Below, piece by piece: positions 226 through 15,017 of a stretch of DNA of 15,150 nucleotides (positions within the stretch are counted from its first letter, which is position 1; each line of letters starts with the position of its first letter). The stretch lies in the IMG/VR virus record IMGVR_UViG_3300049846_001252. One strand, 5' to 3'. The stretch is from a virus (Duplodnaviria; Heunggongvirae; Uroviricota; Caudoviricetes). The position numbers were made by a program, and so were the translations under genes. Below the pieces are notes generated by a model, which was not told where the DNA came from, made no database searches, and was given only the letters and a program-made list of their open reading frames with translations.

Positions 226-229
226 ATAA

Positions 230-649
230 TTACATTAAAACTTTTTCAAAATTATAATTAATTGCGACTTCCGGCGGACTATCAGTACCGACGATTCCTA
301 TGGACGTGTAAACTATTCGCAAAACAAGTCCTGTAGAAAGTTTTGCCGGATAATTTGAAGATGGAATATCTTGCTTTATTGATTCCGGATTTAAGTACCA
401 ATCGGTAATAAATTGCATTATTACGTTTTGGCCGTATAATATCTGAAAAGAAACTCGGTCTCCCCATTTAGCGTTTTTTACTAGAAAAACAGACCCTCCC
501 GCAAGGAGCACATCGTCAGATAAAGTAAAATCAATGTTCGTAGTAGTACCTAAGTCTGCCGTTTGAAACTTACTCTTAGTATCCTTATTTAGTTTAGATT
601 TTTCAAAATCGTCAATATTTCTTGGATCAAATCCTGTATTTGAAGGCAT
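230..649 (-). CDS. hypothetical protein, probably virion-associated
   Basis: 139 aa ORF tightly packed in the minus-strand operon; alternating hydrophobic pattern suggests beta structure. Confidence 0.7.
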   Translation of the reverse strand: MPSNTGFDPRNIDDFEKSKLNKDTKSKFQTADLGTTTNIDFTLSDDVLLAGGSVFLVKNAKWGDRVSFQILYGQNVIMQFITDWYLNPESIKQDIPSSNYPAKLSTGLVLRIVYTSIGIVGTDSPPEVAINYNFEKVLM

Positions 650-650
650 A

Positions 651-1475: not shown

Positions 1476-1482
1476 TTATTTA

Positions 1483-2076
1483 TTATACTTCATGTCCTGA
1501 AATTGTTGTATATAAGTCTTGTGATTGATTGTCTAAGTTTGTTCTAATAACTCGCACTCTTACTCCAGCAGCAACGGCAATTGGTTCTCGTAAAGAAATA
1601 CTCATATTTGGATTTGCGGTAGAATTAAACTTAACAAATCTAGTATTAAATGAACCAGTAGCAACACCAGTTTCTACTTGTACTTCTATCTTCATTTTAC
1701 CAGAAGCAGCGCCTTCAATTTGTGTAAGTTGTAATGTTTTTAACGCAGTGACCGTATAATCGTGATTTGATGTTGCTGATGAAGCAACTGTAGCAGTGCT
1801 ATAGTTATTTATTTCATCGCCTTCCGATTCAATCATTACGACTTGTAGGGGATTAGTGCTAGAATACGCTGTACCTGATTCGTCTCTAAGATTTATATTT
1901 ATACTTCCGTCAGTATTAATGCCTAGTTGATCAGTACCATCACTAATCTTTGTCGTAATTCTTCCGCCAGAATCTACGCCTAATTGTTGTGACGTTACCG
2001 TTCCGTCTACTATCTTAACCGCAGCATCGCCATTAGACTGCGTTCTAATTGGGAGTGATGAGTTGAAATCTGACAT
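1483..2076 (-). CDS. putative virion structural protein, related to neighbours
   Basis: 197 aa; DGTDQLGINTDGSININLRDESG motif and a beta-rich C-terminal region. Confidence 0.65.
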   Translation of the reverse strand: MSDFNSSLPIRTQSNGDAAVKIVDGTVTSQQLGVDSGGRITTKISDGTDQLGINTDGSININLRDESGTAYSSTNPLQVVMIESEGDEINNYSTATVASSATSNHDYTVTALKTLQLTQIEGAASGKMKIEVQVETGVATGSFNTRFVKFNSTANPNMSISLREPIAVAAGVRVRVIRTNLDNQSQDLYTTISGHEV

Positions 2077-2099
2077 ATACTATTTCTCTCTTTCTTTAG

Positions 2100-2285
2100 T
2101 TATTCCATTAACTCTTTAATATCTTTTTCTAATTCTTGTTCGCGCTTATTTTGAATTTCTATGTGAGCTTTTAATCTTTCTATTTCATCCAAAGCTAATT
2201 CAATTTTTAATTCTAACTCTTGTCTAGCAACTTTAACTCTATTAAGCTCTAACATTCGTTTTTGTTTTTCTAATTTTTTATTCAC
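2100..2285 (-). CDS. small coiled-coil protein
   Basis: 61 aa, heptad Leu/Ile pattern, E/K-rich; start overlaps the upstream stop by 1 nt. Confidence 0.7.
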   Translation of the reverse strand: MNKKLEKQKRMLELNRVKVARQELELKIELALDEIERLKAHIEIQNKREQELEKDIKELME

Positions 2286-2914
2286 TAGCTAGCTCCTTCC
2301 AAGACATGAATTCGGGCATTGAAATCTCCGAGACTTGGACGAAGATGAGTAACTTGCACTTCAACAGTATCTCCGATTCCTAACAATAATCCTTCAGTTC
2401 CGAAAACAAATTCAGTATTTAGTGAATTACCGAAGTAAGTATATTTCTTATCTTCTACTACTGAATTTATCATCACTTCATACATTGCTATATTAGTTCC
2501 GGCTACGTCAATTCGTTTAAGTCGTCCAGCAATTCCCGCAATATAACTTGTTACTATAGTTGGAGTGGAACTTGCAACAGAAGTGACTTCGGCGTATATA
2601 GAATTGACCGTTCCGTCAGGTACAACTTTTACATCAATAGTTCCGTCAGCATTTACGTCCAGAGTATTAACTCCATCAGAAATTGCTATGTTGTCGCCAT
2701 CAGCAGCACTAATCTCAACTTGAGTTTCGTTCTGTACGTTTACATTAAGACTGCCATCAGCATTGATGTCTAATTGGTCGCCATCAGCATCTTCTAACGT
2801 AATGGTACTTATCGTTGCACTAACCTGAGCATCAACGCGAAGTCTATTATCAACCTCGTCATATGCTTGTTTTAACACTTGATTTGCGTCTAATTTTGTT
2901 CCAATGGATGACAT
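2285..2914 (-). CDS. putative virion structural protein, first gene of the minus-strand operon
   Basis: 209 aa; two internal repeats DGDQLDINADGSLNVNV and DGVNTLDVNADGTIDVKV; SD AAAGGA upstream. Confidence 0.65.
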   Translation of the reverse strand: MSSIGTKLDANQVLKQAYDEVDNRLRVDAQVSATISTITLEDADGDQLDINADGSLNVNVQNETQVEISAADGDNIAISDGVNTLDVNADGTIDVKVVPDGTVNSIYAEVTSVASSTPTIVTSYIAGIAGRLKRIDVAGTNIAMYEVMINSVVEDKKYTYFGNSLNTEFVFGTEGLLLGIGDTVEVQVTHLRPSLGDFNARIHVLEGAS

Positions 2915-2959
2915 CTAAGTCCTTTAATTCCGGGTCATATTAACTTGTTAAGAAAGTTC

Positions 2960-2989
2960 TTGACTTTTCCGGACATTGCATGGTATTAC
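2960..2989 (+). promoter_or_regulatory. possible sigma70-type promoter for the rightward operon
   Basis: TTGACT (2960-2965), then TG-G-TATTAC (2981-2989) in the 81-bp divergent spacer; the -10 is imperfect. Confidence 0.35.
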
Positions 2990-2995
2990 TAATAT

Positions 2996-3187
2996 ATGAC
3001 AAAGACACAAGACCAGATTAAATCTAAATTAGAGCAATTAAAGCTGGACATAAAGACTTATGAGCATTTTATAGGAAACGTAATGGTTACACCATACATG
3101 CTTAATAACTTTAAATGGCTTATTGAAACAGTAGAAGAATCTTTAGACCGAACAGAAGGGAATAGAAATAGTGAACCGACGCAATAA
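2996..3187 (+). CDS. hypothetical protein
   Basis: 63 aa ORF, first gene of the plus-strand block. Confidence 0.65.
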   Translation: MTKTQDQIKSKLEQLKLDIKTYEHFIGNVMVTPYMLNNFKWLIETVEESLDRTEGNRNSEPTQ

Positions 3188-3383
3188 TAACAACGAAGCA
3201 ATGTTCTATGACGAGTTAGAGAATTACTTAAACGCAAATAACTATGTTATCTATGATTATGATCTAGACGTAGACAGTGCCGGGAACGTGCTCCTTAGTA
3301 TGCAAACAGAAGACGGACGGGACCACGAGTTTCTAAACCCTACAAAGCTAGACCTAATAAAAGTTCTACGTGAATATGAATAA
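3171..3383 (+). CDS. acidic hypothetical protein
   Basis: 70 aa from GTG (alternative ATG at 3201); D/E/N/Y-rich. Confidence 0.65.
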   Translation: MNRRNNNNEAMFYDELENYLNANNYVIYDYDLDVDSAGNVLLSMQTEDGRDHEFLNPTKLDLIKVLREYE

Positions 3384-3430
3384 CTTCCTCGCTTCGCTCG
3401 GTCGTTGGAAAAATTAAAGGATAAAAAATT

Positions 3431-3625
3431 ATGAAAGTACACGTTAAAGGTTACGATCAGCCCCAGGAAGTTTTAGGTTACAGTAGTAAAAGTTTTGCCA
3501 TAAAAGAAGCCGGGACGCTTGGCGAAAAGACAACATGGGTTGTGAAGCCAGTTATGATAATTAAAGAACGGGGCAGCAATAAGATATTGGCCATAGACTT
3601 AGAGGAAGTAGAACGTGAGGGATAA
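3431..3625 (+). CDS. hypothetical protein
   Basis: 64 aa; SD AAAGGA upstream. Confidence 0.7.
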   Translation: MKVHVKGYDQPQEVLGYSSKSFAIKEAGTLGEKTTWVVKPVMIIKERGSNKILAIDLEEVEREG

Positions 3626-3642
3626 CAGCAGTTTGTCGAAAG

Positions 3643-3669
3643 GCGCGGTGCTTTCAGACTTGCTTCAAG
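3643..3669 (+). repeat. 27-bp start-associated repeat, copy 1
   Basis: GCGCGGTGC-TTTCAGACTTGCTTCAAG, 7 nt before ATG 3677. Confidence 0.9.
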
Positions 3670-3676
3670 GAATTAT

Positions 3677-3886
3677 ATGAGAGAAATAAAACTTTATGAT
3701 CTAGAACTACTATGCTCTGATTTTGGAGTAAACTTTAGTATCTCCGCAAGCCAAAATGGTTATTTGATTTATCACTTCGGTCCTGTTTCTTGGATGAAAG
3801 TTATTGGGGATAATTTGAATTGGGAAGATTATGTAAATATTAATCGCAGACTTGCCGCAACGTTTCCAGAGAAGGTATTAGGATGA
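3677..3886 (+). CDS. hypothetical protein
   Basis: 69 aa; SD AAGGA formed by the end of the repeat. Confidence 0.7.
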   Translation: MREIKLYDLELLCSDFGVNFSISASQNGYLIYHFGPVSWMKVIGDNLNWEDYVNINRRLAATFPEKVLG

Positions 3887-4149
3887 AAAAACATGTAGCG
3901 GTACTAGCCGATACTCCACAAGAATTTCACGCATTCTCAAACTCTTTTATGAATACGAAAAACTATTATTCAAAATCATATAATAAATTAGAACTCAATA
4001 ATCAAACGTTCCATATGGTACTTACTCCAGACGATGTTCGCGGGCAAAATCTAGATGGGTTTATTGGTGTGGGTCGATGGTATATACATTGGACGCCTGA
4101 GCGAATACAGAATTATATAATTCCAAATATGGCAAAGAGAACTCCATGA
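3883..4149 (+). CDS. hypothetical protein
   Basis: 88 aa; ATGA overlaps with both neighbours. Confidence 0.75.
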   Translation: MKKHVAVLADTPQEFHAFSNSFMNTKNYYSKSYNKLELNNQTFHMVLTPDDVRGQNLDGFIGVGRWYIHWTPERIQNYIIPNMAKRTP

Positions 4150-4724
4150 ATATAATCAGTATTGATTTGGAAATGAACAAGCCGTCGAACAAAATTATAG
4201 AGGTTGGCTTCTGTATTGTAAATGTTAAGAAGGAACAAATTCTAACACAGCAAAAAATTTATATACATCCAGGAGAAAAGTTGAGTCCGGAGATTGTCGA
4301 ACTCACGGGCATTACTGATGAGCTTTTAGAAAAGGAAGGCGTTGCTTCGTTGGAAGTTGCGTATAACCAAATGGTACATTGGTGTAACAAACTTCAAACA
4401 CACAAGCATCCGGTTCAGTGGGGTACTGACCATTATGAACTAAAAAAACAATTAGGCATTGATTGGGAAAATTATATTTTTTCAAGGCGGGGCATAGATG
4501 TAAAAGCTTTGTACCAAACGTACATGATGTGTGCGCCACAAGGAAAAACTGTTGCCGGATTAAGGAAGGCGTTGCAGAGTTTAGGAGAAGAGTTCCAAGG
4601 AAGACAGCATGACGCAATGGACGATGCGATAAACACTTGGCACGTTATGCGACTACTCCAGCGAAAATTTAAGTTGGCAGATTCTATAACAAAAGCTCAT
4701 GCTGAATACAATAAGAAAGACTAA
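4146..4724 (+). CDS. DEDDh 3'-5' exonuclease (DnaQ-like; ERI-1/KapD-like)
   Basis: ExoI IDLEM, ExoII WGTD and ExoIII GRQHDAMDDAINT motifs all present. Confidence 0.9.
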   Translation: MNIISIDLEMNKPSNKIIEVGFCIVNVKKEQILTQQKIYIHPGEKLSPEIVELTGITDELLEKEGVASLEVAYNQMVHWCNKLQTHKHPVQWGTDHYELKKQLGIDWENYIFSRRGIDVKALYQTYMMCAPQGKTVAGLRKALQSLGEEFQGRQHDAMDDAINTWHVMRLLQRKFKLADSITKAHAEYNKKD

Positions 4725-4725
4725 T

Positions 4726-4920
4726 ATGGCGAAGAAAAAGCTAGTTGGCTATATATGCGGAACCGATGTACTAGAGATTTCGTTAGGAGCTACTGACATA
4801 ATTATATATCCTTCGATTACTGAGTTAAAGAAAAAATCAAAGTGTTGGAAAGAATGCGGTATAGTAGAGATTAAACTATATAATCTTAAAACAAAAGTTA
4901 AGGGAACTTTATGTCTTTAA
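4726..4920 (+). CDS. small basic hypothetical protein
   Basis: ATG at 4726 directly after the exonuclease stop (ORF track starts at 4699); MAKKKLVGYICGTD... Confidence 0.65.
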   Translation: MAKKKLVGYICGTDVLEISLGATDIIIYPSITELKKKSKCWKECGIVEIKLYNLKTKVKGTLCL

Positions 4921-5129
4921 TCAGACGTTCGAACATAGATAGACTTATAAGTAAGCTTGGAATTCAAGGAGACGTAGATTATGAGATTACTAAAAATGAA
5001 AAGGGTAAGCCTGTTTTTGTTCTTTATCGGAATCTTCGGCCTGTTGCCGTTGTCAGCGACCCAACCATCCTTAGAATTAAGAACACAATTCTTAAATTCA
5101 ACGGCAGCCAGGGGGAAACAGATGTTTGA
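4911..5129 (+). CDS. hypothetical protein overlapping the cytochrome c 5' end in another frame
   Basis: 72 aa, SD AAGGGA, coupled to the upstream gene; 149 nt overlap with 4981-5352. Confidence 0.45.
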   Translation: MSLIRRSNIDRLISKLGIQGDVDYEITKNEKGKPVFVLYRNLRPVAVVSDPTILRIKNTILKFNGSQGETDV

Positions 5130-5352
5130 GTATAATTGTATTGGATGCCATAACGTTAATCCCAATAAAGACGGATCTATTGGTCCTGCCTTAGCCGGAA
5201 GTAATAAAGAACTGGTACTTTCCAAAGTTCTAAAAGGAATATATCCTGTTGGATACAAGCCTAAACGTGATACAAAAATTATGCCGGTTATGAACTGGTT
5301 AACTGTTGATGATGTAGAGTCAATTGCTAAATATTTAGAAGGTGTTAAATGA
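4981..5352 (+). CDS. secreted class I c-type cytochrome (single haem)
   Basis: SD AAGGAG 9 nt upstream; signal peptide MRLLKMKRVSLFLFFIGIFGLLPLSA; AARGKQMFEYN-CIGCH (CxxCH); GSIGPAL; candidate distal Met in KIMP; C-terminal helix DDVESIAKYL. Confidence 0.88.
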   Translation: MRLLKMKRVSLFLFFIGIFGLLPLSATQPSLELRTQFLNSTAARGKQMFEYNCIGCHNVNPNKDGSIGPALAGSNKELVLSKVLKGIYPVGYKPKRDTKIMPVMNWLTVDDVESIAKYLEGVK

Positions 5353-5663
5353 GTAAATTTAAAGTCGGGGATAGGGTTATATATAAAAAAGCTCGGGCCA
5401 AAGAAAATCTAACTTACAATTTATTTAATTCTTTCATTCCTTCTAGCGGAAATTTAGACTTAGTCCAGGCTGCGGATTTGGCGGGACATCTAATAGTTTC
5501 TAGATCTCATTTAACAAAAACTCCAATTGTTGGAGAAATTATAAAAGCACACTTCCTTGGTTCAGAAAGTGAAAACTTTAAAGTTGAATTTAGATTTAAC
5601 GGACTTACGCATATAATTAATATTGAAACAAAAGCACTTAAACTAATTAAAGGAGATAAATAA
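5349..5663 (+). CDS. hypothetical protein with N-terminal SH3/KOW-like KFKVGDRV motif
   Basis: 104 aa; ATGA overlap with the cytochrome gene; MSKFKVGDRV start is common in small phage proteins. Confidence 0.7.
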   Translation: MSKFKVGDRVIYKKARAKENLTYNLFNSFIPSSGNLDLVQAADLAGHLIVSRSHLTKTPIVGEIIKAHFLGSESENFKVEFRFNGLTHIINIETKALKLIKGDK

Positions 5664-5834
5664 ATGGAAAAATTAACACAAATGGTTCAAAAGATGGTGC
5701 CTCTAGCAATGATGTTCGGCGGGGGAGTTGCGATGGGAGCATTGGCTACTCAGACGAGTCCGGTCGGCGCTATTATAGCTGTAGGGTTAATCGGTATTGG
5801 TATGTTTTTAAATCATAAGAACAAGGCCCAGTGA
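5664..5834 (+). CDS. 56-aa two-transmembrane protein; absent from ORF track
   Basis: SD AAAGGAG at 5649-5655; MEKLTQMVQKMVPLAMMFGGGVAMGALATQTSPVGAIIAVGLIGIGMFLNHKNKAQ*; fills the gap exactly. Confidence 0.8.
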   Translation: MEKLTQMVQKMVPLAMMFGGGVAMGALATQTSPVGAIIAVGLIGIGMFLNHKNKAQ

Positions 5835-5852
5835 TTTCAGACTTGCTTCAAG
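5826..5852 (+). repeat. 27-bp start-associated repeat, copy 2
   Basis: GCCCAGTGA-TTTCAGACTTGCTTCAAG, 9 nt before ATG 5862; 18-bp core identical to copy 1. Confidence 0.9.
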
Positions 5853-5861
5853 AAATATTGA

Positions 5862-6323
5862 ATGTTTAGATTATATAGTGACCTTTTTAAGGTAGAAGAA
5901 AAATTTGACTCACTAATTGGTTATATAAAAGAAAGAGAAAGTCTTGTGAACAAAACAATACAAACTATTGGCACAATTCCTACAACTAACGTTACATACA
6001 AAGACGGGCGATGGGTTGATTCTGCCGGAGAAGAACTGCGCGGAAAAAGAATTGATGCTGAATTTTTAGCGACTAACGCATTGAATGTAAATGTCCAAAG
6101 TATTCCACAGTATGATCAAAAAATTGCCGATATAGAAAATAGAGTCGCGGCATTGGAAAAATTGGTTGAGGTTGACGAAACCAAAGTAAGTAGTAATGGA
6201 AAAGATTTGGCACTCACTTATTTATTAATTCAATTGAAATTATTAGCAGATGACCCAGTGTCAGGCTACGTTTTTGTTCCTAAAGTAATTGATGCTTATA
6301 ATAAGTATTTGGATGCAAAATGA
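5862..6323 (+). CDS. hypothetical protein with coiled-coil segment
   Basis: 153 aa; YDQKIADIENRVAALEKL heptads. Confidence 0.75.
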   Translation: MFRLYSDLFKVEEKFDSLIGYIKERESLVNKTIQTIGTIPTTNVTYKDGRWVDSAGEELRGKRIDAEFLATNALNVNVQSIPQYDQKIADIENRVAALEKLVEVDETKVSSNGKDLALTYLLIQLKLLADDPVSGYVFVPKVIDAYNKYLDAK

Positions 6324-6565
6324 TACATTGGTATTTAGTAGCCGTAATGACCAGTACAATAAATCCTAAATGGGTATCATATAACTTTCTAATAGATCTT
6401 CCTAAAGATCTTTGTCAATATATTGAAATGCAAGATAAGCTTGCGCCTACGTATATTACGGATGTTGCCGGGTATCAAGCAGTTATGACACTTGAATGTG
6501 CCGAAAATTATGAAAGATATCAGAATGTAATTAATACTAGACGAATATCAGCAGGTTGGTGGTAA
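6320..6565 (+). CDS. hypothetical protein
   Basis: 81 aa; ATGA overlap; hydrophobic N-terminus. Confidence 0.65.
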   Translation: MIHWYLVAVMTSTINPKWVSYNFLIDLPKDLCQYIEMQDKLAPTYITDVAGYQAVMTLECAENYERYQNVINTRRISAGWW

Positions 6566-6567
6566 TA

Positions 6568-7089
6568 ATGAACCTATTAGAAATCTGGCGACCTGTAATT
6601 AATTATAAGAACAATTATGAAATATCCAATATGGGTAGAGTTCGAAACATTAAGTCGGGCCACATACTAACTCCTCAACATTCCAAGAGATTAAATAATT
6701 ATACGACGGTTTGTTTAAGTAAAAATAATAAGACATCGACTTTTGCATTAGGTCGATTAGTTTTAAAGCACTTCCAGCGCGATAAAATTTGTAAGAATTT
6801 TGTGGCGCATCATATCGATTTTAATCACAAAAATAATAAAAATTCCAATCTAGTAAAGACAACTCTATCCGAACATTTTCGATTAGTTAAGAAAAAGAAT
6901 AAGGACATTGGTGTGAGTAAAGTAAATATCCGGGGTCTGGACTATTGGAGAGCAGTACTTACTATTAAAAAGAAAATAAAAACTCTTGGATATTTTCAAA
7001 CTAAACAAGAAGCTAAGGAATGTTTTCAGGAGAACTACTTTAAATATAACGGAATTTGGTTAGATATGGAAGGAAATGTAGTGGCATGA
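6568..7089 (+). CDS. NUMOD4-HNH homing endonuclease with C-terminal AP2-like DNA-binding domain
   Basis: EIWRPVINYKNNYEISNMGRVRN (NUMOD4); AHHIDFNHKNNKNSNL...SEH (HNH); GVS...WRAVLTIKKKIKTLGYFQTKQEA (AP2-like). ATG at 6568 preferred over TTG at 6556. Confidence 0.88.
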   Translation: MNLLEIWRPVINYKNNYEISNMGRVRNIKSGHILTPQHSKRLNNYTTVCLSKNNKTSTFALGRLVLKHFQRDKICKNFVAHHIDFNHKNNKNSNLVKTTLSEHFRLVKKKNKDIGVSKVNIRGLDYWRAVLTIKKKIKTLGYFQTKQEAKECFQENYFKYNGIWLDMEGNVVA

Positions 7090-7090
7090 G

Positions 7091-7117
7091 CCCCCGAGCT
7101 TTCAGAAGTGTACCAAG
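7091..7117 (+). repeat. 27-bp start-associated repeat, copy 3 (degenerate)
   Basis: CCCCCGAGC-TTTCAGAAGTGTACCAAG, 13/18 core identity, 6 nt before ATG 7124. Confidence 0.75.
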
Positions 7118-7123
7118 GAAATT

Positions 7124-7315
7124 ATGCGAGAAAAATTAATTAAACTGTTGCAAGCAAAAATTGGACTATATCCTAGGCTTCAGAAGGCGGTCAAAGCTGG
7201 CGACAGGAAAGAAGCTAAGCAGATTCACGAAACAATGGACGAACTTCAGCATCAAATTGAAGCACTAGAAGATGAATATTTAAAAAAGGTCGAAAATGAA
7301 CTTAAAAAGAAGTAA
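7124..7315 (+). CDS. small helical/coiled-coil protein
   Basis: 63 aa; SD AAGGA. Confidence 0.7.
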   Translation: MREKLIKLLQAKIGLYPRLQKAVKAGDRKEAKQIHETMDELQHQIEALEDEYLKKVENELKKK

Positions 7316-7508
7316 ATTTGAACTAGTAGAACAGGCAAATAACACGCACAGATTATTTGTTCTTGATGGTGGCCTTGCAATTCGCGTAAATCGGGTATTA
7401 AAATCATATCCTTCTGGCGCACTTAAAAGAGACTCTGAGGGCATATTTACTGTACCAGAAAATTCATGGACCAAGATTGCAAAAATCTTAGGCATTAAGA
7501 ATAGTTAA
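7296..7508 (+). CDS. hypothetical protein
   Basis: 70 aa; last gene before the convergent junction. Confidence 0.65.
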   Translation: MNLKRSKFELVEQANNTHRLFVLDGGLAIRVNRVLKSYPSGALKRDSEGIFTVPENSWTKIAKILGIKNS

Positions 7509-7624
7509 ATACCAAAAAATTTTGAAATCGGGGAAAACACGCGTCGAGGACCGGGGGTATACCTGGGTAGCCATCGGACCGAGATCGCGCAATCTAGACC
7601 CCTTAGCGTTCGTTTTAAACGATC

Positions 7625-7924
7625 CTACTTATTCTGACGGGCATGTCTTCTTCTGTCGGTAACTTGCTTAGCAACCCGTCTTAACCTACATGGATACGAA
7701 CAAACTACCTGTTTAGCCTTTGTTGTCAGGAATTCGTTATTACATTCCGGGCATACTTTTAGCTTCTCTTCTACCCCCCTTTTGTCCTTTGTATTTTGTG
7801 AAATACAATTAGGACAAATTTTCCCATGCCATTTCTTTCCAGTTTCGTCGGAATAGATATACTGACTATCCTTCATATTTAGGATTTTTGTTTTATCTTT
7901 GTTGCATACTTTACACAGCGCCAT
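7625..7924 (-). CDS. double zinc-finger protein (CxxC...CxxC and CxxC-x13-CSxxC), probable nucleic-acid binder
   Basis: CKVC, CPNC, CPEC, CSYPC; SD GAGGTG on the minus strand; basic C-terminus. Confidence 0.8.
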   Translation of the reverse strand: MALCKVCNKDKTKILNMKDSQYIYSDETGKKWHGKICPNCISQNTKDKRGVEEKLKVCPECNNEFLTTKAKQVVCSYPCRLRRVAKQVTDRRRHARQNK

Positions 7925-7944
7925 GTTTTCACCTCTGCTTCAAG
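7918..7944 (+). repeat. 27-bp repeat, copy 4 (degenerate, overlaps zinc-finger start and SD)
   Basis: GCGCCATGT-TTTCACCTCTGCTTCAAG, 14/18 core identity. Confidence 0.6.
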
Positions 7945-8021
7945 AACTTGTTAAGACCAATGATAATTTGTATCCACTTATACCCCCATTTTATGGGTAT
8001 AACCAGATATGAATTATAACT

Positions 8022-8048
8022 CCCGCCTGTTTTCAGACTTGCTTCAAG
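8022..8048 (+). repeat. 27-bp repeat, copy 5
   Basis: CCCGCCTGT-TTTCAGACTTGCTTCAAG, 18/18 core identity; intergenic, no adjacent start codon. Confidence 0.9.
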
Positions 8049-8102
8049 ATTTATATACCTTATATTTGTTCCCATGTATACCGACCCCAACTGATCTTCA
8101 TT

Positions 8103-8120
8103 CCCCCCTACCCCCCCCCC
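8103..8120. other. C6-TA-C10 homopolymer tract
   Basis: Read directly; sits at the compositional boundary. Confidence 0.9.
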
Positions 8121-8121
8121 G

Positions 8122-8230
8122 TGGCATGACTCTTGCATATATACAAAAAACGTGCCAACTAAAATCTTGGCATAGATCTTGCATAGAGAGAAGTCCCCTT
8201 GCAAGAATCGTACTAGGCATACTTTTTGCA
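8122..8230 (+). promoter_or_regulatory. three tandem sigma54 (-24/-12)-type promoter motifs
   Basis: TGGCAT-GACTC-TTGCA (8122-8137), TGGCAT-AGATC-TTGCA (8168-8183), AGGCAT-ACTTT-TTGCA (8215-8230); consensus TGGCAC-N5-TTGCW. Weaker minus-strand TGGCAC-GTTTT-TTGTA at 8157-8142. Confidence 0.75.
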
Positions 8231-8274
8231 GGGGAGACAGCAGTATCAGAATGAGACACAATCCGAAATAGTGT

Positions 8275-8303
8275 TTGACTTTATATATTAGTTTGGTTAT
8301 ACT
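8275..8303 (+). promoter_or_regulatory. sigma70-type promoter
   Basis: TTGACT-N17-TATACT upstream of SD GAGGAG and ATG 8332. Confidence 0.8.
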
Positions 8304-8331
8304 ACATTGAAACTAACGAGGAGTGTATAAA

Positions 8332-8520
8332 ATGAAATTCGATTTTAGAGGAAGAGTGTGTCAAATTGAGACATTCAAGACAAAGGGTGTTGTTAAGTAC
8401 AGAGCATTAGTGTTTAGTCATAGACTAGGAATTAAGTCATACTTTAAAACATTGGGCGAGTATGAGACAAGACGCGACGCATTGTTAGGATTGATGAGTC
8501 AAGTTGAGACGGTGGGGTGA
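8332..8520 (+). CDS. small basic hypothetical protein, first gene of the right block
   Basis: ATG 8332 with SD GAGGAG (ORF track uses GTG 8323); 62 aa. Confidence 0.7.
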   Translation: MKFDFRGRVCQIETFKTKGVVKYRALVFSHRLGIKSYFKTLGEYETRRDALLGLMSQVETVG

Positions 8521-8570
8521 GGTGGCTCAGTGTCTCGCTTTGAGAAGAATACATTTTTTTACTATTTTAC

Positions 8571-8597
8571 TTAAGTTTTAAAAATATAAGCCGATGA
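8571..8597 (+). promoter_or_regulatory. sigma28 (FliA)-type promoter 1
   Basis: TTAAGTTT-N11-GCCGATGA vs consensus TAAAGTTT-N11-GCCGATAA; followed by SD AAGGA and ATG 8621. Confidence 0.8.
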
Positions 8598-8620
8598 GTA
8601 TAGTATAAGGAAACTAAAAC

Positions 8621-9037
8621 ATGAAACAAGATGCAATTAGATATATAAATCAGACAATACTAAAACAAGCGTCTAAACTTAACTATACAGTTAAGAGCGA
8701 AGCGCCGAGTACAGAGGTCGATCTATTTAATAGCCCTAGTCTAATAGTCTGGTCTGGACAAAGTGACAAGACCGTGTTTCAAAATGAGACAGTGAATTGG
8801 GCTTTTAGAGCTTTACATGACGCATTGCATCTTAAGACTAAACTTAATTTCACTCATGACGCCGAAATTGAACTAGGTCACATTCAAGCATCTAAGTATG
8901 ATTCGGACTTATTAAGAGAGTTAGTTTTTTGCGAAGTCTCAATGCAAGCCATGTATCATAAGGAGACAGGATTGTTTTTGCAAGACCAAGCTTCATTCAC
9001 TGAAAATTTTTTAAAAAAGATTAAAGTTTTAAAATAA
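8621..9037 (+). CDS. hypothetical protein with FRALHDALH motif (possible zincin-like metal site)
   Basis: 138 aa; HDxxH followed by ...AE pattern seen in recurrent phage hypothetical proteins (recalled). Confidence 0.7.
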   Translation: MKQDAIRYINQTILKQASKLNYTVKSEAPSTEVDLFNSPSLIVWSGQSDKTVFQNETVNWAFRALHDALHLKTKLNFTHDAEIELGHIQASKYDSDLLRELVFCEVSMQAMYHKETGLFLQDQASFTENFLKKIKVLK

Positions 9038-9048
9038 ATGACCGATAA
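9022..9048 (+). promoter_or_regulatory. sigma28 (FliA)-type promoter 2
   Basis: TAAAGTTT-N11-ACCGATAA; followed by SD AAGGAG (9058-9063) and ATG 9074. Confidence 0.8.
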
Positions 9049-9073
9049 GTTATTTATAAGGAGATACAAGACA

Positions 9074-9334
9074 ATGACAATTTTAAAAAACGATGTTTTA
9101 GAGTTTCGAGTTAGTTATTATAAAAATAATAGACTGTATCAAATTAAGTCATCTAGCTATGCCTATGCATTAGGTGTATTCACTGGACTAAATTGCTCGG
9201 CGTTTTTAGACTTTAAAGCGTCTAATGACATAGGTGATTCAAGTCTTAGTGCTAGTCTAATGAAACGAGACAAGCAAGGAAACGTTTCAGTTATACACAA
9301 ACACTATTTGTCTCAGATTGAGAATCGAGTTTAG
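9074..9334 (+). CDS. hypothetical protein
   Basis: ATG 9074 preferred because it has an SD; the ORF-track ATG 9038 lies inside the promoter. Confidence 0.65.
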   Translation: MTILKNDVLEFRVSYYKNNRLYQIKSSSYAYALGVFTGLNCSAFLDFKASNDIGDSSLSASLMKRDKQGNVSVIHKHYLSQIENRV

Positions 9335-9336
9335 TT

Positions 9337-9609
9337 ATGACAAAAAAATATAAAACATTAGACCAAATAAGACGAGACTTAGACGCGGGCATTGACATAT
9401 ATTGGTGCAATCTTGGGTACAAGGTGCACTATGTTCCAGCATTAGACAACTTTGAGTCATACTCTGTTAAAAACGGAAAAGCAATTCGGGTGTCTTATAT
9501 TGAGACATACTTTGGGAGTCTTATCCAGCCTTCAGACATTGGAAGTTGTTTTAGTATCCAAGTCCCTAAGCAAAAGGAGAAGTCATGTCGCAAAATGATA
9601 CAATCTTAA
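9337..9609 (+). CDS. hypothetical protein
   Basis: 90 aa; operon-packed. Confidence 0.7.
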   Translation: MTKKYKTLDQIRRDLDAGIDIYWCNLGYKVHYVPALDNFESYSVKNGKAIRVSYIETYFGSLIQPSDIGSCFSIQVPKQKEKSCRKMIQS

Positions 9610-9728
9610 TTCAAGGGGTTAAGTTTCTCATTATGAGACGAGAGTCGCATCGGATGCTCTTGTCTTGGACTGAGAAGTCGGGCATAGTTAAGACTCGCTG
9701 GATTGCATACAAAGGAAAGGTTTAGTCT

Positions 9729-9923
9729 ATGTATGATTCAATGACTTTGAATGAACTAATAGAGCGAGAAAAATCGGCGCTCTGGTTGCTGAAAAACACA
9801 ACGTCAAGCGAAGCATTGCAGCAAGACGCAAAAAAAGACCTTTGGGCTATTAGGAAGGCTATGTCTAAAAACTATGACTTTAATTGGATAACTCAAGACT
9901 TTAAAAAAAGAAAGGGTTTATAA
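9729..9923 (+). CDS. hypothetical protein
   Basis: 64 aa; SD GGAAAGG. Confidence 0.7.
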   Translation: MYDSMTLNELIEREKSALWLLKNTTSSEALQQDAKKDLWAIRKAMSKNYDFNWITQDFKKRKGL

Positions 9924-9924
9924 A

Positions 9925-10275
9925 ATGAAACCGATTCAATCTTGGAACATAGACGGCGCGACTGTTAACATATATTCAGAGTATGACTCAGACTGGTCAT
10001 GGGTTGAGGAGTCTGAGGTCGAGGTTTTGAGAAAAATTAGTCGTGGGGACTTATTTCAGGTCATTATCGAAGTCAAAGTCTACGACAAAACCGGCGAAAT
10101 AGACGGGACTGATTCACTCGGCGGCGTGGTTTTAGAATACTCAATTAAAAAAGACTTTGAAAGTCAAGTCCGAGAAGTTATCAATGACCATGCAATGATT
10201 GATAATGCAAAAAATGAATTAGACAAAAAAATTAAAAATATACTGAAAGTGTATCAAAATGAAACAAAGCCTTAA
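9925..10275 (+). CDS. acidic hypothetical protein
   Basis: 116 aa; D/E-rich. Confidence 0.7.
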   Translation: MKPIQSWNIDGATVNIYSEYDSDWSWVEESEVEVLRKISRGDLFQVIIEVKVYDKTGEIDGTDSLGGVVLEYSIKKDFESQVREVINDHAMIDNAKNELDKKIKNILKVYQNETKP

Positions 10276-10771
10276 TGAACTAACTCGGCGCATAGTGGAT
10301 AATGATCTAGGCATTAAAGTCTATTTAAAGTCGTATGACGCGCCCGCTTTCCTATTAAAAACGATTGACAGGTATGAAGCGCAATACCATCCAGAAGTTG
10401 ACTCTATAGTCATGAATGAAGCATGGCATAGGTCCGAAGTTGATTTTTTTAGTACATTGATTCATGAGCTTAGTCATGCGACGGGACATGCGTCAAGACT
10501 TAACAGAGCGGGGATAAGTCAACGTTTCGGCATGGCATGGTTAGACTTTCACGTCGAGGAATTAATTGCGCAAAGGTCTTGCCAACTGGTCATGCAAAGT
10601 CTAGGCCTAAACGCTTGTCCGATTGAATATAAATGTTCGACTAACTACATGGCAAAACAATTGTTTCAGATTGAGACGCTGAGTCCGAGTTATGAAATAA
10701 ACGCGGACGATATTGAGACACAAGCTAATGATTCGGCGCAATTTATTTTAAAAAAAGTACTCAAGTTTTAA
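10259..10771 (+). CDS. stand-alone zincin-like metallopeptidase (ArdC C-terminal / MPTase-PolyVal type)
   Basis: FFSTLIHELSHATGHASRLNR...VEELIAQ matches the HExxH-TGH-xxRLxR...EELxAE signature of ArdC-type domains; no N-terminal ssDNA-binding domain. Confidence 0.85.
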   Translation: MKQSLNELTRRIVDNDLGIKVYLKSYDAPAFLLKTIDRYEAQYHPEVDSIVMNEAWHRSEVDFFSTLIHELSHATGHASRLNRAGISQRFGMAWLDFHVEELIAQRSCQLVMQSLGLNACPIEYKCSTNYMAKQLFQIETLSPSYEINADDIETQANDSAQFILKKVLKF

Positions 10772-10787
10772 AAAAAGAAGCCGAAGA
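10761..10787 (+). promoter_or_regulatory. sigma28 (FliA)-type promoter 3
   Basis: TCAAGTTT-N11-GCCGAAGA; followed by SD AAAGGAG and GTG 10827. Confidence 0.75.
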
Positions 10788-10826
10788 GTATTATATACGC
10801 GCTTTCCTAAACAAAGGAGTTGACAA

Positions 10827-11021
10827 GTGAATAAATATAAATACAAGTTTTCTGAATTATCAGACAAGGCAAAAAAACAAGCGGCGCATTATTATCGACA
10901 AGGATTGTTTGAAACGCGAGACGCGGACGACGTTCCTACAATTCAGGAATGTTTAGAGTATTGCCAAGATTGTGAAAATGATTTACTTTATAACAAAAAC
11001 GGAAAGATTAAAGGAGACTAA
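10827..11021 (+). CDS. hypothetical protein
   Basis: 64 aa; YKFSELSDKAKKQA N-terminus seen in many small phage proteins (recalled). Confidence 0.7.
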   Translation: MNKYKYKFSELSDKAKKQAAHYYRQGLFETRDADDVPTIQECLEYCQDCENDLLYNKNGKIKGD

Positions 11022-11025
11022 GACC

Positions 11026-11946
11026 ATGCAAGAACAAAAAAAGAAGCGAATTAAAAAAGTGTTTGACTCTAGACAGCTTTGTCATGTTTGGGCAAGTGAA
11101 ACGCAAAGCGAAGGTCGAAATAGTGGTAGATCTATGTTTTTTGAGAATAACACAATATACAGCTATGGTCGGCATTATACACTAGGCGTCATTCATACTA
11201 ACAAGCGCGGCGAAAAATTAGGACTTATAAACTCTGAAAGGTACAGCGTCACGACTTCCAAGCATCGAAGTCAAGCCGCCAGTGCCTTGTATGGTCGAAT
11301 GAATGTCTTGCATGTTCCTAGACCTAATGACTTAATGAGTGAGACTAATGAAATATATTTAACAAATGCCGTCGCAAGTTATGTTGAGGAAATTTTTAAC
11401 AGTCGAAAACATTGCAGCGAATACACTAAGGAAGGAATGCTAGACAGTATTAAAGATTTAAACATACTTTTAAAATTTAAAGGTAAAAAGGAGTTTAGCC
11501 TAGATGCTGAGACAATGACTGTCATTGATGAAATATTAGTCGAGAAGATTGAACAAAACAAAGCTAGGGACGCGGCTAGGTCTGAGAAAAGAAAGGCTCA
11601 ATTCGCTGAGTATAAAAGGCAACAGGAATTAAAACGCCAAGACTATCTGTCTAGTGTTATGTTATGGCCTACGTTTCAAAACACTAAGTCAATACCTAGT
11701 CAATATTTCCCGCATGACATGATTCGAGTCAATAAATTAACACTTGAAGTAGAAACGAGTCGAGGCGCGAAAGTTCCTTTAGATGAAGCATTGAAAGCGT
11801 TTCAGGACTTGGAGTCGGGCATTGATGTCATAGGTCGCAGAGTCGGAAGCTTTACAATTGATGAAGTCACACAAGACAAGATCGTAGTCGGGTGCCATGA
11901 GTTAGACAGAGCACAAGTTAGAAAAATTTTAAGCGAGGGGCTATAA
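11026..11946 (+). CDS. conserved phage protein of unknown function (HVWA...FFENNTIYSYGRHY; ETSRGAKVP...VGCH)
   Basis: ATG 11026 with SD AAAGGAG (ORF track starts 10972); N- and C-terminal globular parts joined by a charged helix. Confidence 0.8.
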   Translation: MQEQKKKRIKKVFDSRQLCHVWASETQSEGRNSGRSMFFENNTIYSYGRHYTLGVIHTNKRGEKLGLINSERYSVTTSKHRSQAASALYGRMNVLHVPRPNDLMSETNEIYLTNAVASYVEEIFNSRKHCSEYTKEGMLDSIKDLNILLKFKGKKEFSLDAETMTVIDEILVEKIEQNKARDAARSEKRKAQFAEYKRQQELKRQDYLSSVMLWPTFQNTKSIPSQYFPHDMIRVNKLTLEVETSRGAKVPLDEALKAFQDLESGIDVIGRRVGSFTIDEVTQDKIVVGCHELDRAQVRKILSEGL

Positions 11947-11947
11947 A

Positions 11948-12217
11948 ATGAATTATCAGATTAAAGGACCTTGGGAAGTTACTTTTAGGGAATTGACAGG
12001 TCAATATCACATCAAAGGAATGCATCAATTAGACAACGATGAGCACAAAATGAATGCTAACCTTATTGCTGCGGCACCGGAAATGCTTGAAACATTAAAG
12101 GAAATAGTTGAAATATTAGATAATAAAATTGCAAAGCTTGGTCCAAAGGATAATGACCTAGTCAAGCCTCGAAACATGGCTTTACATGCTATTTACAGAA
12201 CGACGGGGGGAAAATAA
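11948..12217 (+). CDS. phage protein with GPW...NANLIAAAPEMLE motif
   Basis: 89 aa; matches the widespread TPGPW...ANARLIAAAPELLEAL family. Confidence 0.8.
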   Translation: MNYQIKGPWEVTFRELTGQYHIKGMHQLDNDEHKMNANLIAAAPEMLETLKEIVEILDNKIAKLGPKDNDLVKPRNMALHAIYRTTGGK

Positions 12218-12218
12218 A

Positions 12219-12416
12219 ATGAAAATTGATTTAAGAGAATTTTCAGACGATGAGTTAAGCTTGTATGTTATGAATGATGAAAGTTTTTACCGAATGCGTC
12301 GAAATAGACGGGCATTGGTTGACTTGCTGGATAGTGTCTTTTTATATACGGACTGCCAGCTTGAAACTTTGAACCAAGACCTAGACGACGAAGAGAAGGA
12401 GAGCGAGTCATGCTAA
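12219..12416 (+). CDS. small acidic hypothetical protein
   Basis: ATG 12219 after SD GGGGGG; 65 aa, FSDDELSLYVMNDESFY. Confidence 0.7.
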   Translation: MKIDLREFSDDELSLYVMNDESFYRMRRNRRALVDLLDSVFLYTDCQLETLNQDLDDEEKESESC

Positions 12417-12880
12417 CAAAGGGTGAATTACAAAAATTAAGTGATCGAGTCGATGAGATAGACCAAACGATGGACTTATGTGACTCAAATCGAGACGCTG
12501 ATATCTTGGATAATTTAGAGGCCGAGCTTGATGAAATTATGAAACAACTTGAGGAAACGCCACAAAAAGGCAAGCTAGAAAGTCGAGAATTCGCTCTGTT
12601 AAGCGAGCCGCTAGACTATCAAGTAAGCTTCAGGCTTCAGGAATTAGAGCGTCATTTTTCAAAAGATTTAATTCGGGGGATTGTATTAAGTCGGGACTAC
12701 GCGCCAGTTCCTAAACCGACCCATCTTGAGACGTGGGACTCCAGCGAAATTATTAGACTTCACTTGAGCAATCTCATTATGACATACCCAATGAAAAATA
12801 TTGTTGACGTGTTTGAGATTCATGGATACGATGTCAAAAAGCTGAAGCAAGGCTTAAAACAAAAAAGAAAGGCTGGTTAA
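12410..12880 (+). CDS. hypothetical protein with acidic N-terminal coiled coil
   Basis: 156 aa; SD AAGGAG. Confidence 0.75.
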   Translation: MLTKGELQKLSDRVDEIDQTMDLCDSNRDADILDNLEAELDEIMKQLEETPQKGKLESREFALLSEPLDYQVSFRLQELERHFSKDLIRGIVLSRDYAPVPKPTHLETWDSSEIIRLHLSNLIMTYPMKNIVDVFEIHGYDVKKLKQGLKQKRKAG

Positions 12881-12882
12881 TT

Positions 12883-13257
12883 ATGTCTTATTGCATAACA
12901 AAAATAAAAGGGTATTCATTCACTGGAGAATTCGACGGGGAGTTAACAACCGAACAACTAGCCGAACTCGGTCTAGACGCTCAACCTGAAAAAGTCCCGC
13001 TTATTGAGGGAGACTTTTCGATTGACTGGGACGATGACATTGCTCAGCCGATGATTGATACCATGTACTTAATTAATCCATACGATGACAAAAAATTTAT
13101 AACTCTTGATCTAGACTCGGTTGACACGGCAACACTAGAGGAGCATCTTGCGCAGTACGGTGATTCGGCGGACTGGGAAAGCGACCGGATAGCAGAACGA
13201 GCGGACTGGGCCTATGACTCTTGGAAAGACCGAATGATGGAAGACGGGGGGGAATAG
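12883..13257 (+). CDS. highly acidic protein, candidate DNA mimic
   Basis: 124 aa with 20 Asp + 12 Glu vs 6 Lys + 3 Arg. Confidence 0.75.
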   Translation: MSYCITKIKGYSFTGEFDGELTTEQLAELGLDAQPEKVPLIEGDFSIDWDDDIAQPMIDTMYLINPYDDKKFITLDLDSVDTATLEEHLAQYGDSADWESDRIAERADWAYDSWKDRMMEDGGE

Positions 13258-13259
13258 CT

Positions 13260-13400
13260 ATGCACAGACAAACAGAGGAGACTATAGGACTGATTGTGTT
13301 CGGGGGATTGATGTTGGCTCTCGCGTGGGTTTTCCTATACACTTATGGCGAACTAGCGGGCCTTCCGGCTTTATTAACTGAAGTATTGAAAGGGTTATAA
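13260..13400 (+). CDS. 46-aa single-pass membrane protein; absent from ORF track
   Basis: MHRQTEETIGLIVFGGLMLALAWVFLYTYGELAGLPALLTEVLKGL*; G-rich SD; fills the gap between 13257 and 13403. Confidence 0.75.
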   Translation: MHRQTEETIGLIVFGGLMLALAWVFLYTYGELAGLPALLTEVLKGL

Positions 13401-13402
13401 AC

Positions 13403-13618
13403 ATGAAAAAGACAGAGTATGACAATTTATCAAGCGAAGCAAAAAAGGTCATTGACTACATCTTAGACCATGAACACGAGGACTTTATTGAGAATCCGAC
13501 TAAGACTCATGTCTATTACTTGGCCTTAGTGGTGACTGAAGGAAAGTCAACGGCGAATAAGATTTACTTTGAGACCATAGAGGAAAGTCTAGAAAATAGT
13601 GAGGTGTTTGGTGACTAA
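13403..13618 (+). CDS. small acidic hypothetical protein
   Basis: 71 aa. Confidence 0.7.
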   Translation: MKKTEYDNLSSEAKKVIDYILDHEHEDFIENPTKTHVYYLALVVTEGKSTANKIYFETIEESLENSEVFGD

Positions 13619-14048
13619 CTTCACAATGATAAGTCAGGGCACACGACTCATTTTTAGAAAGTACGGTCAGGACGGGACTACAGTCACCATCGGCGGACTA
13701 CCAAAGGACGGCTCATATAAGGTCGAGGATTGTCTAGGACGAGACATCACGGCATGGGTCAAGGAGCGGCAAGCCTTGGGGGACCGGAAGCTGGGTCAAA
13801 TTATTAAGGTCATGAACTTTATCGACAGGGTGTCAACGGCACAACGTCTCTTTTTGGATAGTCAAAAGATGTTTAAGGACGACCAGTTAGTTGAGGACCT
13901 TACGTATGCTTTCCTAAACTTTAAGGAAATAGGCGAAAAGTATATAAAAGAAAATGAACACCTACGAGCCGATAGAACTAAAGGGGGCGTTTCAAAAACT
14001 GAGGGACCTTTAGGTTCCGAGGATAGGACTAAAGCGAGGAATTTATGA
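13599..14048 (+). CDS. hypothetical protein (start uncertain, possibly ATG 13626)
   Basis: 149 aa ORF in operon. Confidence 0.65.
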   Translation: MRCLVTNFTMISQGTRLIFRKYGQDGTTVTIGGLPKDGSYKVEDCLGRDITAWVKERQALGDRKLGQIIKVMNFIDRVSTAQRLFLDSQKMFKDDQLVEDLTYAFLNFKEIGEKYIKENEHLRADRTKGGVSKTEGPLGSEDRTKARNL

Positions 14049-14251
14049 ATAATGAGCCAAGAATGAAGATAGAAGCCCTGAAGTATTACAAAGGTCGAGT
14101 CATCTGCGAGTTTCGGCTAGAAACGAGCAATATAAAGGAAGCTTATAGTAAGTATAAGATGTTGCGTGACAATAACTCAGGCTGGGTCATTAAAATGTCT
14201 CAAAACGAAAATACGTTTTTCGACAAAATGGCTCATTTTGAGTCAGGATAG
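14045..14251 (+). CDS. hypothetical protein
   Basis: 68 aa; ATGA overlap. Confidence 0.65.
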   Translation: MNNEPRMKIEALKYYKGRVICEFRLETSNIKEAYSKYKMLRDNNSGWVIKMSQNENTFFDKMAHFESG

Positions 14252-14260
14252 GGGTTTAGT

Positions 14261-14632
14261 ATGGATAAGTTAAAAAAAATGCAAAAAAGACCCCTTAACT
14301 TGCTATTAGGACTAATATACACGTTCCTAATAGGGTGCGGAAATGCCTCTGAGAGCCCCGTAAATGCCCCAGAATCGACGACTAGTCCGACCCCAATATC
14401 ATCTAGCCCTGTTCCGCAGCCAGACGAGGACTCTGGTCCGAGGAAATGCGAGGAACCTAAAAAATGTCCCTTACCGGAGCGGACTAAGGAATATAAGGAC
14501 CTACGTGATGCCTTCCTAAAGGCTTTGGAATTATGCCATGAACAGAGCCGAGAATTCCCCGTTAAGGAATTGTTAAGACATTTAGAAGACAGAGAACACG
14601 GTCGCGGGCAGGTTCCTAAGAAAAGAGATTAA
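14261..14632 (+). CDS. putative lipoprotein with Ser/Pro/Thr-rich linker
   Basis: Basic N-terminus, hydrophobic LNLLLGLIYTFL, lipobox LIG-C; then ESPVNAPESTTSPTPISSSPVPQP and a Cys-containing helical domain. Confidence 0.7.
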   Translation: MDKLKKMQKRPLNLLLGLIYTFLIGCGNASESPVNAPESTTSPTPISSSPVPQPDEDSGPRKCEEPKKCPLPERTKEYKDLRDAFLKALELCHEQSREFPVKELLRHLEDREHGRGQVPKKRD

Positions 14633-14668
14633 GGTTTTTTCCGACGAAGGAATGAAGTTTAAACGTAA

Positions 14669-14683
14669 TGACTGAGTCAGTCA
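14669..14683. promoter_or_regulatory. 15-bp palindrome, candidate operator
   Basis: TGACTGA-G-TCAGTCA in the spacer 16 nt upstream of GTG 14700. Confidence 0.45.
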
Positions 14684-14699
14684 AGAAAGAGAGTTAATT

Positions 14700-14999
14700 G
14701 TGAGCCGAGTAAAGAGTGAAGACCTAGCAAAAGCGGAAGCTTTGTCAGAGAGATTAGAGGACATGTTAGTAGGGCTTAGGGCCGAGACGCAAATGCGGCG
14801 AGAGGTCCTAACTAAGCGTTTTCAGGATTCGCAGGTAGTTTCCTTGAATGTTGACGGTAAGTCTTATGAGTTAGGCCCGAAGTCAAGAGAAGTTGTTAGA
14901 AAGGCTTTACTGGAGTTTACGGAGAAGCATTTGCTAGAAGGTTTAGAGGATATAAAACAACAGGCCCAAAATGAGGGCGGGTTTGGTTCTAGGGAGTAG
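14700..14999 (+). CDS. hypothetical coiled-coil protein
   Basis: 99 aa from GTG; E/K/R/L-rich. Confidence 0.7.
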   Translation: MSRVKSEDLAKAEALSERLEDMLVGLRAETQMRREVLTKRFQDSQVVSLNVDGKSYELGPKSREVVRKALLEFTEKHLLEGLEDIKQQAQNEGGFGSRE

Positions 15000-15017
15000 T
15001 TTCGGGTTCTACAAGAT

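Follow-up and report, generated by a model that had tools for sequence, protein, structure and literature searches.

The intergenic segment at positions 7930-8320 of a 15,150-nucleotide (nt) stretch of viral DNA (IMG/VR record IMGVR_UViG_3300049846_001252; this whole stretch is called the window below) is, judged from its sequence, a real and recurrent regulatory module, or hub, with a layout common to unrelated phages. It heads a block of small co-directional genes and combines sigma-54-type (-24/-12) boxes with a sigma-70-like promoter, and sigma-28-type (FliA-type) promoters follow within the block; such wiring of phage genes to host transcription by three sigma motifs is apparently undescribed. 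By gene content the window appears to be phage DNA, from an uncultured, lytic-looking phage of about 79 kb, and its own 324-amino-acid (aa) protein, discussed below, is recorded on a 79,150-bp contig. The window covers 15 kb of this genome, and searches of the phage's own genes were limited to those 15 kb. The hub and the promoter-like sites downstream of it consist of the following elements:

7930-8320: hub, a divergent intergenic control region of ~400 bases
8031-8048, plus strand: copy of an 18-nt repeat, TTTCAGACTTGCTTCAAG
8103-8120, plus strand: C tract, CCCCCCTAC(C)10, with CCCCCC at 8103 and C10 at 8111
8122-8137, plus strand: sigma-54-type box 1, TGGCATGACTCTTGCA (TGGCAT-N5-TTGCA)
8142-8157, minus strand: weaker mirrored box, TGGCACGTTTTTTGTA, a match to the a-priori consensus
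8168-8183, plus strand: sigma-54-type box 2, TGGCATAGATCTTGCA (TGGCAT-N5-TTGCA)
8200-8215, minus strand: weaker mirrored box, TAGTACGATTCTTGCA, a match to the a-priori consensus
8215-8230, plus strand: sigma-54-type box 3, AGGCATACTTTTTGCA, followed by GGGGAG as in locus L082
about 8242-8258, plus strand: first TATCA-N3/4-TGAGACA element, TATCAGAATGAGACA
8275-8303, plus strand: sigma-70-like promoter, TTGACT-17-TATACT, 28 nt upstream of the ribosome-binding site (RBS) of the first gene
8571-8597, plus strand: sigma-28-type promoter 1, TTAAGTTT-N11-GCCGATGA, upstream of the gene at 8621
9022-9048, plus strand: sigma-28-type promoter 2, TAAAGTTT-N11-ACCGATAA, upstream of the ATG at 9074
10761-10787, plus strand: sigma-28-type promoter 3, TCAAGTTT-N11-GCCGAAGA, upstream of the gene at 10827

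The order within the hub is therefore 18-nt repeat, C tract, boxes, TGAGACA element, sigma-70-like promoter, AGGAG RBS and first gene. Exact copies of GGCAT-N5-TTGCA are found at 8123, 8169 and 8216, all on the plus strand and spaced 46-47 bp apart, a count that was reached in none of 200 shuffled sequences. When a consensus set a priori (TGGCACG-N4-TTGCW) was used, six matches were obtained in the window, four of them within 8122-8215, and the hub boxes have the GG and GC of sigma-54 promoters ten bases apart in the TGGCAC-N5-TTGCW frame. The three best boxes are oriented towards the operon, 100-210 nt upstream of it, and the mirrored boxes towards the divergent gene. An earlier note on this DNA had listed three sigma-54 motifs here, which are borne out; its statement that all promoters face right needs correction, because the two weaker boxes on the minus strand (8142-8157 and 8200-8215) point left. 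The sigma-70 promoter that it placed at the same boundary was found as stated, and its position is suggestive, but sigma-70-like matches as a class are not enriched in the window (44 vs 43.6 expected). For sigma-28, the a-priori FliA consensus (TAAAGTTT-N11-GCCGATAA, with up to three mismatches allowed) matched the window only at 8571, 9022 and 10761, all on the plus strand, with 1, 2 and 3 mismatches in 16 positions; three matches were reached in 1 of 200 shuffles. The three sigma-28 promoters claimed are thus the only FliA-consensus matches in the window.

Two further features change at the same point. The hexamer TGAGAC has 13 plus-strand copies to the right of 8230 (the first at 8252, the last at about 13570) and none to the left, in agreement with the claim that the first copy of a palindrome lies at the boundary. 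Across 8230, the frequency per kb rises from 12.0 to 25.7 for GAC and from 8.9 to 17.2 for GTC, and falls from 14.8 to 7.5 for ATC. This GAC/GTC shift, also noted previously, is genuine and arises because codon usage changes at the boundary: the GC content of third codon positions (GC3) goes from 0.24-0.31 to 0.40, the use of GAC for Asp from 41% to 67%, and that of GTC for Val from 8-12% to 35%. Within the putative early genes, the TGAGAC element (8242-13575, plus strand) is strand-biased and mostly in frame 0, and it has two fuller forms, TATCA-N3/4-TGAGACA and GTCTCA-N3-TGAGAC.

Box arrays of this kind recur widely in viral sequences. Scanning IMG/VR for two GGCAT-N5-TTGCA boxes 26-36 nt apart yielded 78 loci, vs roughly 2 expected by our own estimate; these represent 37 nucleotide-level families with GC contents of 0.26-0.64, and many have 3-14 boxes. 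Some of the 78 matches are chance or coding tandem repeats (L033 and L034) and were set aside, and the box pair of L105 lies within a gene and is probably due to chance. In 244 distinct sites from viral arrays, positions that were not part of the selection also fit sigma-54, with T at -1 in 87%, a purine after GGCAY in 93% and T after TTGCA in 58%. Five records that are 92-100% complete each have their boxes in one cluster per genome, with 0 for a reversed-pattern control, and the cluster is usually located at a divergent junction. C or G tracts lie near the arrays in 19 of 34 families vs 10 expected, an approximately twofold excess, and the motif CCCCCCTAC also adjoins the arrays of L230 and L082.

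The sigma-28-type sites share one consensus, cTAAAGTTTT-N11/12-CCGATAAgtat (as a search pattern, cTAAAGTTTT-N11/12-CCGATAAGTAT), in the window, L083 (6 sites), L105 (9), L096, L222 (9), L211 and L251, and are restricted to a single co-directional block in each genome. In the window, L083, L105 and L096, they lie 25-45 nt upstream of an RBS and ATG, leaving short leaders. A scan of viral records with the extended consensus returned 52 loci, several with 3-9 same-strand copies; sigma-54 box clusters accompany 7 of these 52 loci vs 0 of 52 reversed-sequence controls.

Co-occurrence of the features in relatives, which the earlier note had named beforehand as a test, was found in full in L209, where the whole design is contained in 450 bp (a C-rich segment, TGAGACA repeats, mirrored boxes, a TTGACA-type promoter and a FliA-type promoter), and in part in L230, L082, L083/G011, L215 and L233. 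In L230, CCCCCCTACCC is followed by four boxes facing the genes and then by genes that carry two FliA-type promoters. L082, L083 and L105 were identified as distant relatives by way of their 324-aa homologues. In L082, a C tract precedes three plus-strand and three minus-strand boxes, which lie in a divergent junction at a distance of 3 kb upstream from the homologue of the 324-aa protein, and L083 has at least five tandem boxes, then six FliA-type promoters ahead of small genes. A box cassette of ~115 nt can be aligned across the window, L230, L082 and the L017 family. The TATCA-N3/4-TGAGACA element occurs four times in tandem (TATCAAAATGAGACA) beside the sigma-54 boxes of L209 (11290-11520), and L222 has 60 TGAGAC copies in 14.6 kb (1-12500), many as GTCTCA-N3-TGAGAC palindromes, in addition to its nine FliA-type promoters. 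The genes common to the window and these phages amount to the 324-aa gene at most. The boundary proposed at about 8100-8300 is thus a regulatory hub with features that co-occur in other phages. Megablast and blastn searches of 50,697 deposited phage records with the window or the hub gave no close relative, peptide patterns from a structural protein and the 324-aa protein found none in IMG/VR, and a comparison of the 78-kb record G012 with this phage by structural protein was negative for kinship.

Convergent mirrored box pairs are rare in bacteria and recurrent in viral contigs, with 16 stretches in 596 Gb of bacterial genomes (9 in one metagenome-assembled genome, MAG) vs 27 in IMG/VR, which suggests a phage-specific use of the sigma-54 enzyme. 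The nine bacterial stretches in one genome (L168-L179) belong to an Acidimicrobiales MAG, suggesting that the inverted repeat there belongs to a mobile element or dispersed repeat.

The block served by the hub contains the following features:

8332-14999, plus strand: block of 19 co-directional small genes with their own codon usage
8332-8520, plus strand: first gene, 62 aa, isoelectric point (pI) 9.9
10259-10771, plus strand: ArdC-type zincin domain protein (HExxH), 170 aa (MPTase-PolyVal, Pfam PF18818, E-value 1.8e-13)
10972-11946, plus strand: conserved 324-aa protein (phrog_7247), the sole gene common to the window and L082, L083 and L105
12883-13257, plus strand: very acidic 124-aa protein, pI 4.05, with 32 acidic vs 9 basic residues

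The claim of about 20 small right-facing genes, including an ArdC-type zincin and a very acidic protein, agrees with these 19 plus-strand open reading frames (ORFs), among which both proteins are present. The zincin also matches phrog_7245, annotated as 'anti-restriction protein' (E-value 2.5e-13), and thus provides an anti-defence or host-takeover gene of the kind that characterizes T7/T5-type early regions. Neither the first gene nor the acidic protein matched any family in Pfam or PHROG searches. Homologues of the 324-aa protein are located in early regions and terminal repeats of Caulobacter, Rhizobium, Brevundimonas, Achromobacter and other phages: in Rhizobium phage RHEph01 the gene is in the early region, upstream of the RNA polymerase gene, and in Caulobacter phage CcrBL10 it is within the terminal repeat. 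Because of these two placements, the block downstream of the hub looks like a set of early genes. No boxes were found in the isolates that carry a 324-aa homologue (RHEph01, vB_BsubS-Delta and CcrBL10). Certain His, Cys and Gly residues are invariant across the family, which matches nothing in Pfam; a profile search of the PDB was empty.

Taken as a whole, the evidence is best explained, with moderate probability, by a hub controlling ~19 early or host-takeover genes that would be read by host RNA polymerase with host sigma factors. The sigma-70-type promoter would start the operon, and the FliA-type promoters would re-initiate transcription within it, ahead of genes 2, 3 and 9. Upstream, the ~115-nt cassette of mirrored sigma-54 boxes would bind the host sigma-54 holoenzyme, with one of two outcomes: the boxes may be bidirectional, enhancer-dependent promoters that a host activator fires to serve the genes on either side of the junction, or they may hold the holoenzyme in closed complexes that act as a trap, insulator or cap. 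The host would presumably be flagellated, so that sigma-54 and sigma-28 would both be active in the cells that the phage can reach.

Host sigma-54 and FliA are the likely readers of the motifs, since phages without common genes share the design and the box consensus spans a wide range of GC contents, and since no activator or sigma gene was found in the near-complete records tested. The Sigma70_r2 domain was not found in the complete genomes with sigma-28-type promoters (G011 and G013), in three partial records with such promoters or in four fragmentary array-bearing records; Sigma54_activat (the AAA+ activator domain) was not found in seven genomes at least 92% complete or in four fragments, nor Sigma54_DBD in five complete genomes.

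Several observations weigh against this explanation. In G011, tandem boxes beside early genes point away from those genes; more generally, relatives differ in the orientation of their boxes and most arrays are mirrored, which fits simple promoters poorly. No conserved enhancer was recognised near the boxes, in addition to the lack of an activator gene. The TTGACT-17-TATACT match is not significant alone, and its position adds its only weight. The TGAGACA and GTCTCA-N3-TGAGAC elements shared with L209 and L222 show that at least one further DNA-binding factor acts here, which may be a host protein, since unrelated phages share the element. A phage sigma factor or activator may also be encoded in the 64 kb outside the window, and Pfam-level searches can miss divergent phage sigma factors. 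The proposal of stacked promoters that all face right accordingly stands as regards the presence of the motifs and is weakened as regards their function by the mirrored boxes, the orientation in G011 and the lack of an activator or enhancer; given that mirroring and unconserved orientation, the boxes may be holoenzyme-binding sites and not stacked promoters.

Many bacteria have all three sigma factors active at once in their flagellated cells, so that a phage restricted to motile cells would encounter every one of them. Such co-activity would be an alternative to the idea that the module serves whichever sigma factor dominates. We offer a bolder proposition tentatively and regard it as doubtful: unrelated phages may have converged on wiring their first genes to the host flagellar sigma cascade (sigma-54 plus sigma-28). 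They would be able to reach only motile-phase cells, for example via the flagellum, or free-swimming attack-phase predators with FliA as global sigma factor, and the mirrored cassette may be a phage-specific device for capturing sigma-54 holoenzyme and not an ordinary promoter.

The earlier note had instead read the hub as lying at a genome end, or at the boundary of a terminal repeat, that enters the cell before the rest and carries redundant promoters such that whichever sigma factor dominates pulls in and expresses the early genes. G011 (57 kb, 100% complete, direct terminal repeats class) begins and ends in a box array, and its sigma-28-driven genes are confined to the first 4.4 kb; of 31 whole contigs, 5 stop no more than about 65 bp from an array; in G013, G010 and L105, a contig end is 2-7 kb away from the module; the array abuts the terminase gene in two families (L058 and L036); and homologues of the 324-aa gene are found at the ends of isolate genomes. 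However, what is repeated at the two ends of G011 is the tandem array, as expected when an assembler breaks a circular or concatemeric map in a repeat, and the evidence from contig ends is confounded because tandem repeats break assemblies. Moreover, five records with a completeness of 92-100% have 18-50 kb between the array and either end, and within the window the hub is internal. A terminal position of the hub is possible, and the reading as a whole appears rather unlikely.

We consider it unlikely that the -24/-12 likeness is coincidental and that the boxes are operators or iterons bound by a different protein of the phage or host, for example a repressor, a replication initiator or, at a cos/pac site, the small terminase. 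Such a binder would suit the many units that are near-perfect inverted repeats, typical of dimeric binders, and the terminase gene adjoining the arrays in the L058 and L036 families; adjacency is limited to these two, and the window has no terminase gene. The consensus, unselected flanks included, holds across 37 families with GC contents of 0.26-0.64 and no genes in common, whereas a phage-encoded binder is expected to co-vary with its phage. A perfect DnaA box pair (TTATCCACA) is found inside or beside the array in L030 (6611-6630) and L018 (10587-10607), a hint that the hub coincides with a replication origin in some phages; DnaA boxes near arrays are present in only 2 of 39 families, however, and are therefore no general origin signature. 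Boxes are lacking in phage DSL-LC04 and in pelagiphage HTVC027P, the TerL of which is 40% identical to that of the L058 family. The host of HTVC027P is not known to carry rpoN, which weakly favours sigma-54 as the factor recognized.

It is distinctly improbable that the sigma-28-type sites are middle promoters for a phage-encoded sigma-28-like factor and not for host FliA, since, although their density and uniformity (up to 9 in 9 kb, with an extended GTAT-ATAA tail) resemble phage-specific sets and the gene search of this genome covered 15 kb, the phages that bear them have no other genes in common, Sigma70_r2 is missing from G011, G013 and the three partial promoter-bearing records, and the first promoter after the junction is of this type in L105 and G011.

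Early transcription in phages is classically driven by host sigma-70 or by a phage polymerase. T7 has an early region with tandem host promoters A1-A3 and the Ocr protein, and T5 has a first-step-transfer region. The window resembles both in that host-RNA-polymerase promoter motifs head a co-directional block of small genes, here with an anti-restriction-type zincin and an acidic protein; it differs in that the T7 and T5 promoters are sigma-70 only and at mapped genome ends, whereas the motifs of the window are of sigma-54, sigma-70 and sigma-28 type. Like the bacterial sigma-54 promoters of the glnAp2 and pspA type, the boxes have the TGGCAY-N5-TTGCW core with correct flanks and spacing, but in phages they form arrays of 3-14, often as convergent mirror pairs, with no activator or enhancer identified. 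In the open-access literature, no paper was found that describes box arrays in phages or phage promoters of sigma-28 type.

A precedent for the use of host sigma-54 by a phage is Pseudomonas phage YuA, for which -24/-12 promoters read by the host enzyme, with activity in a promoter trap, were reported (Ceyssens et al. 2008, cited in PMC10914365); a later study of transcript starts also found a sigma-54-like promoter region. The YuA record (AM749441) has three annotated -24/-12 promoters, which are single sites scattered in the structural region. YuA differs from the window in having neither a mirrored multi-box cassette at an early junction nor sigma-28-type promoters. For the FliA-type sites, the closest parallels are class 3 flagellar promoters and those of the Bdellovibrio attack phase, which have identical -35 and -10 elements and spacing; FliA-type promoters (TTAAG-N16-CCGATA) account for two-thirds of mapped attack-phase promoters in Bdellovibrio (PMC3627812). 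The TTAAG form is present in promoter 1 of the window and in 4 of 6 promoters of L083. The bacterial promoters drive flagellar or attack-phase genes, whereas those of the window would drive phage genes, and a Bdellovibrio-like attack-phase host may be taken as a lead only.

If the explanation by host sigma factors is true, use of sigma-28 and sigma-54 would couple infection to host state, namely motility, attack phase, or nitrogen and envelope stress. The module would then offer a sequence signature by which host lifestyle could be predicted for uncultured phages from their genomes, as well as a source of natural strong sigma-28 promoters and sigma-54 binding cassettes.

To the left of the block, the window comprises the following parts:

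1-2914, minus strand: structural-looking genes
2996-7508, plus strand: middle block with a DEDDh exonuclease, a cytochrome c and a NUMOD4 endonuclease
7625-7924, minus strand: 99-aa protein with four CxxC-type pairs and a basic tail, the divergent gene on the left flank of the hub (from the ORF list)

The 99-aa protein has no Pfam family above cut-off; weak homologues are present in L082 and L230. No Rfam match was obtained anywhere in the window. The 18-nt repeat TTTCAGACTTGCTTCAAG gives five plus-strand matches (3652, 5835, 7927, which is weak, 8031 and 15027) vs 0.09 expected, and a further degenerate copy is located at about 7100. The copies at 3652, 5835 and about 7100 lie directly upstream of start codons, and those at 8031 and 15027 do not. 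At the first three positions, the 3' end of the repeat is the RBS, 8-13 nt upstream of the start codon. A GC-rich stretch precedes the repeat, which may serve the middle block as a processing site or as a promoter specific to the phage. The cytochrome c of the middle block is of class I (4981-5352, plus strand; Pfam Cytochrom_C, E-value 7e-10) and has a hydrophobic segment at its N-terminus. Among 5.8 billion proteins, it has just two homologues, at 45% identity; an atlas search with the gene gave mixed phyla, and no host was indicated. Among the structural-looking genes, three in a row (230-2914, minus strand) encode Ser/Thr/Gly/Asn-rich proteins of 197-274 aa, which matched nothing in Pfam; the 274-aa protein likewise has no relative among deposited phages. 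Their N-terminal segments are alike, and the three may be paralogous fibre or decoration proteins.

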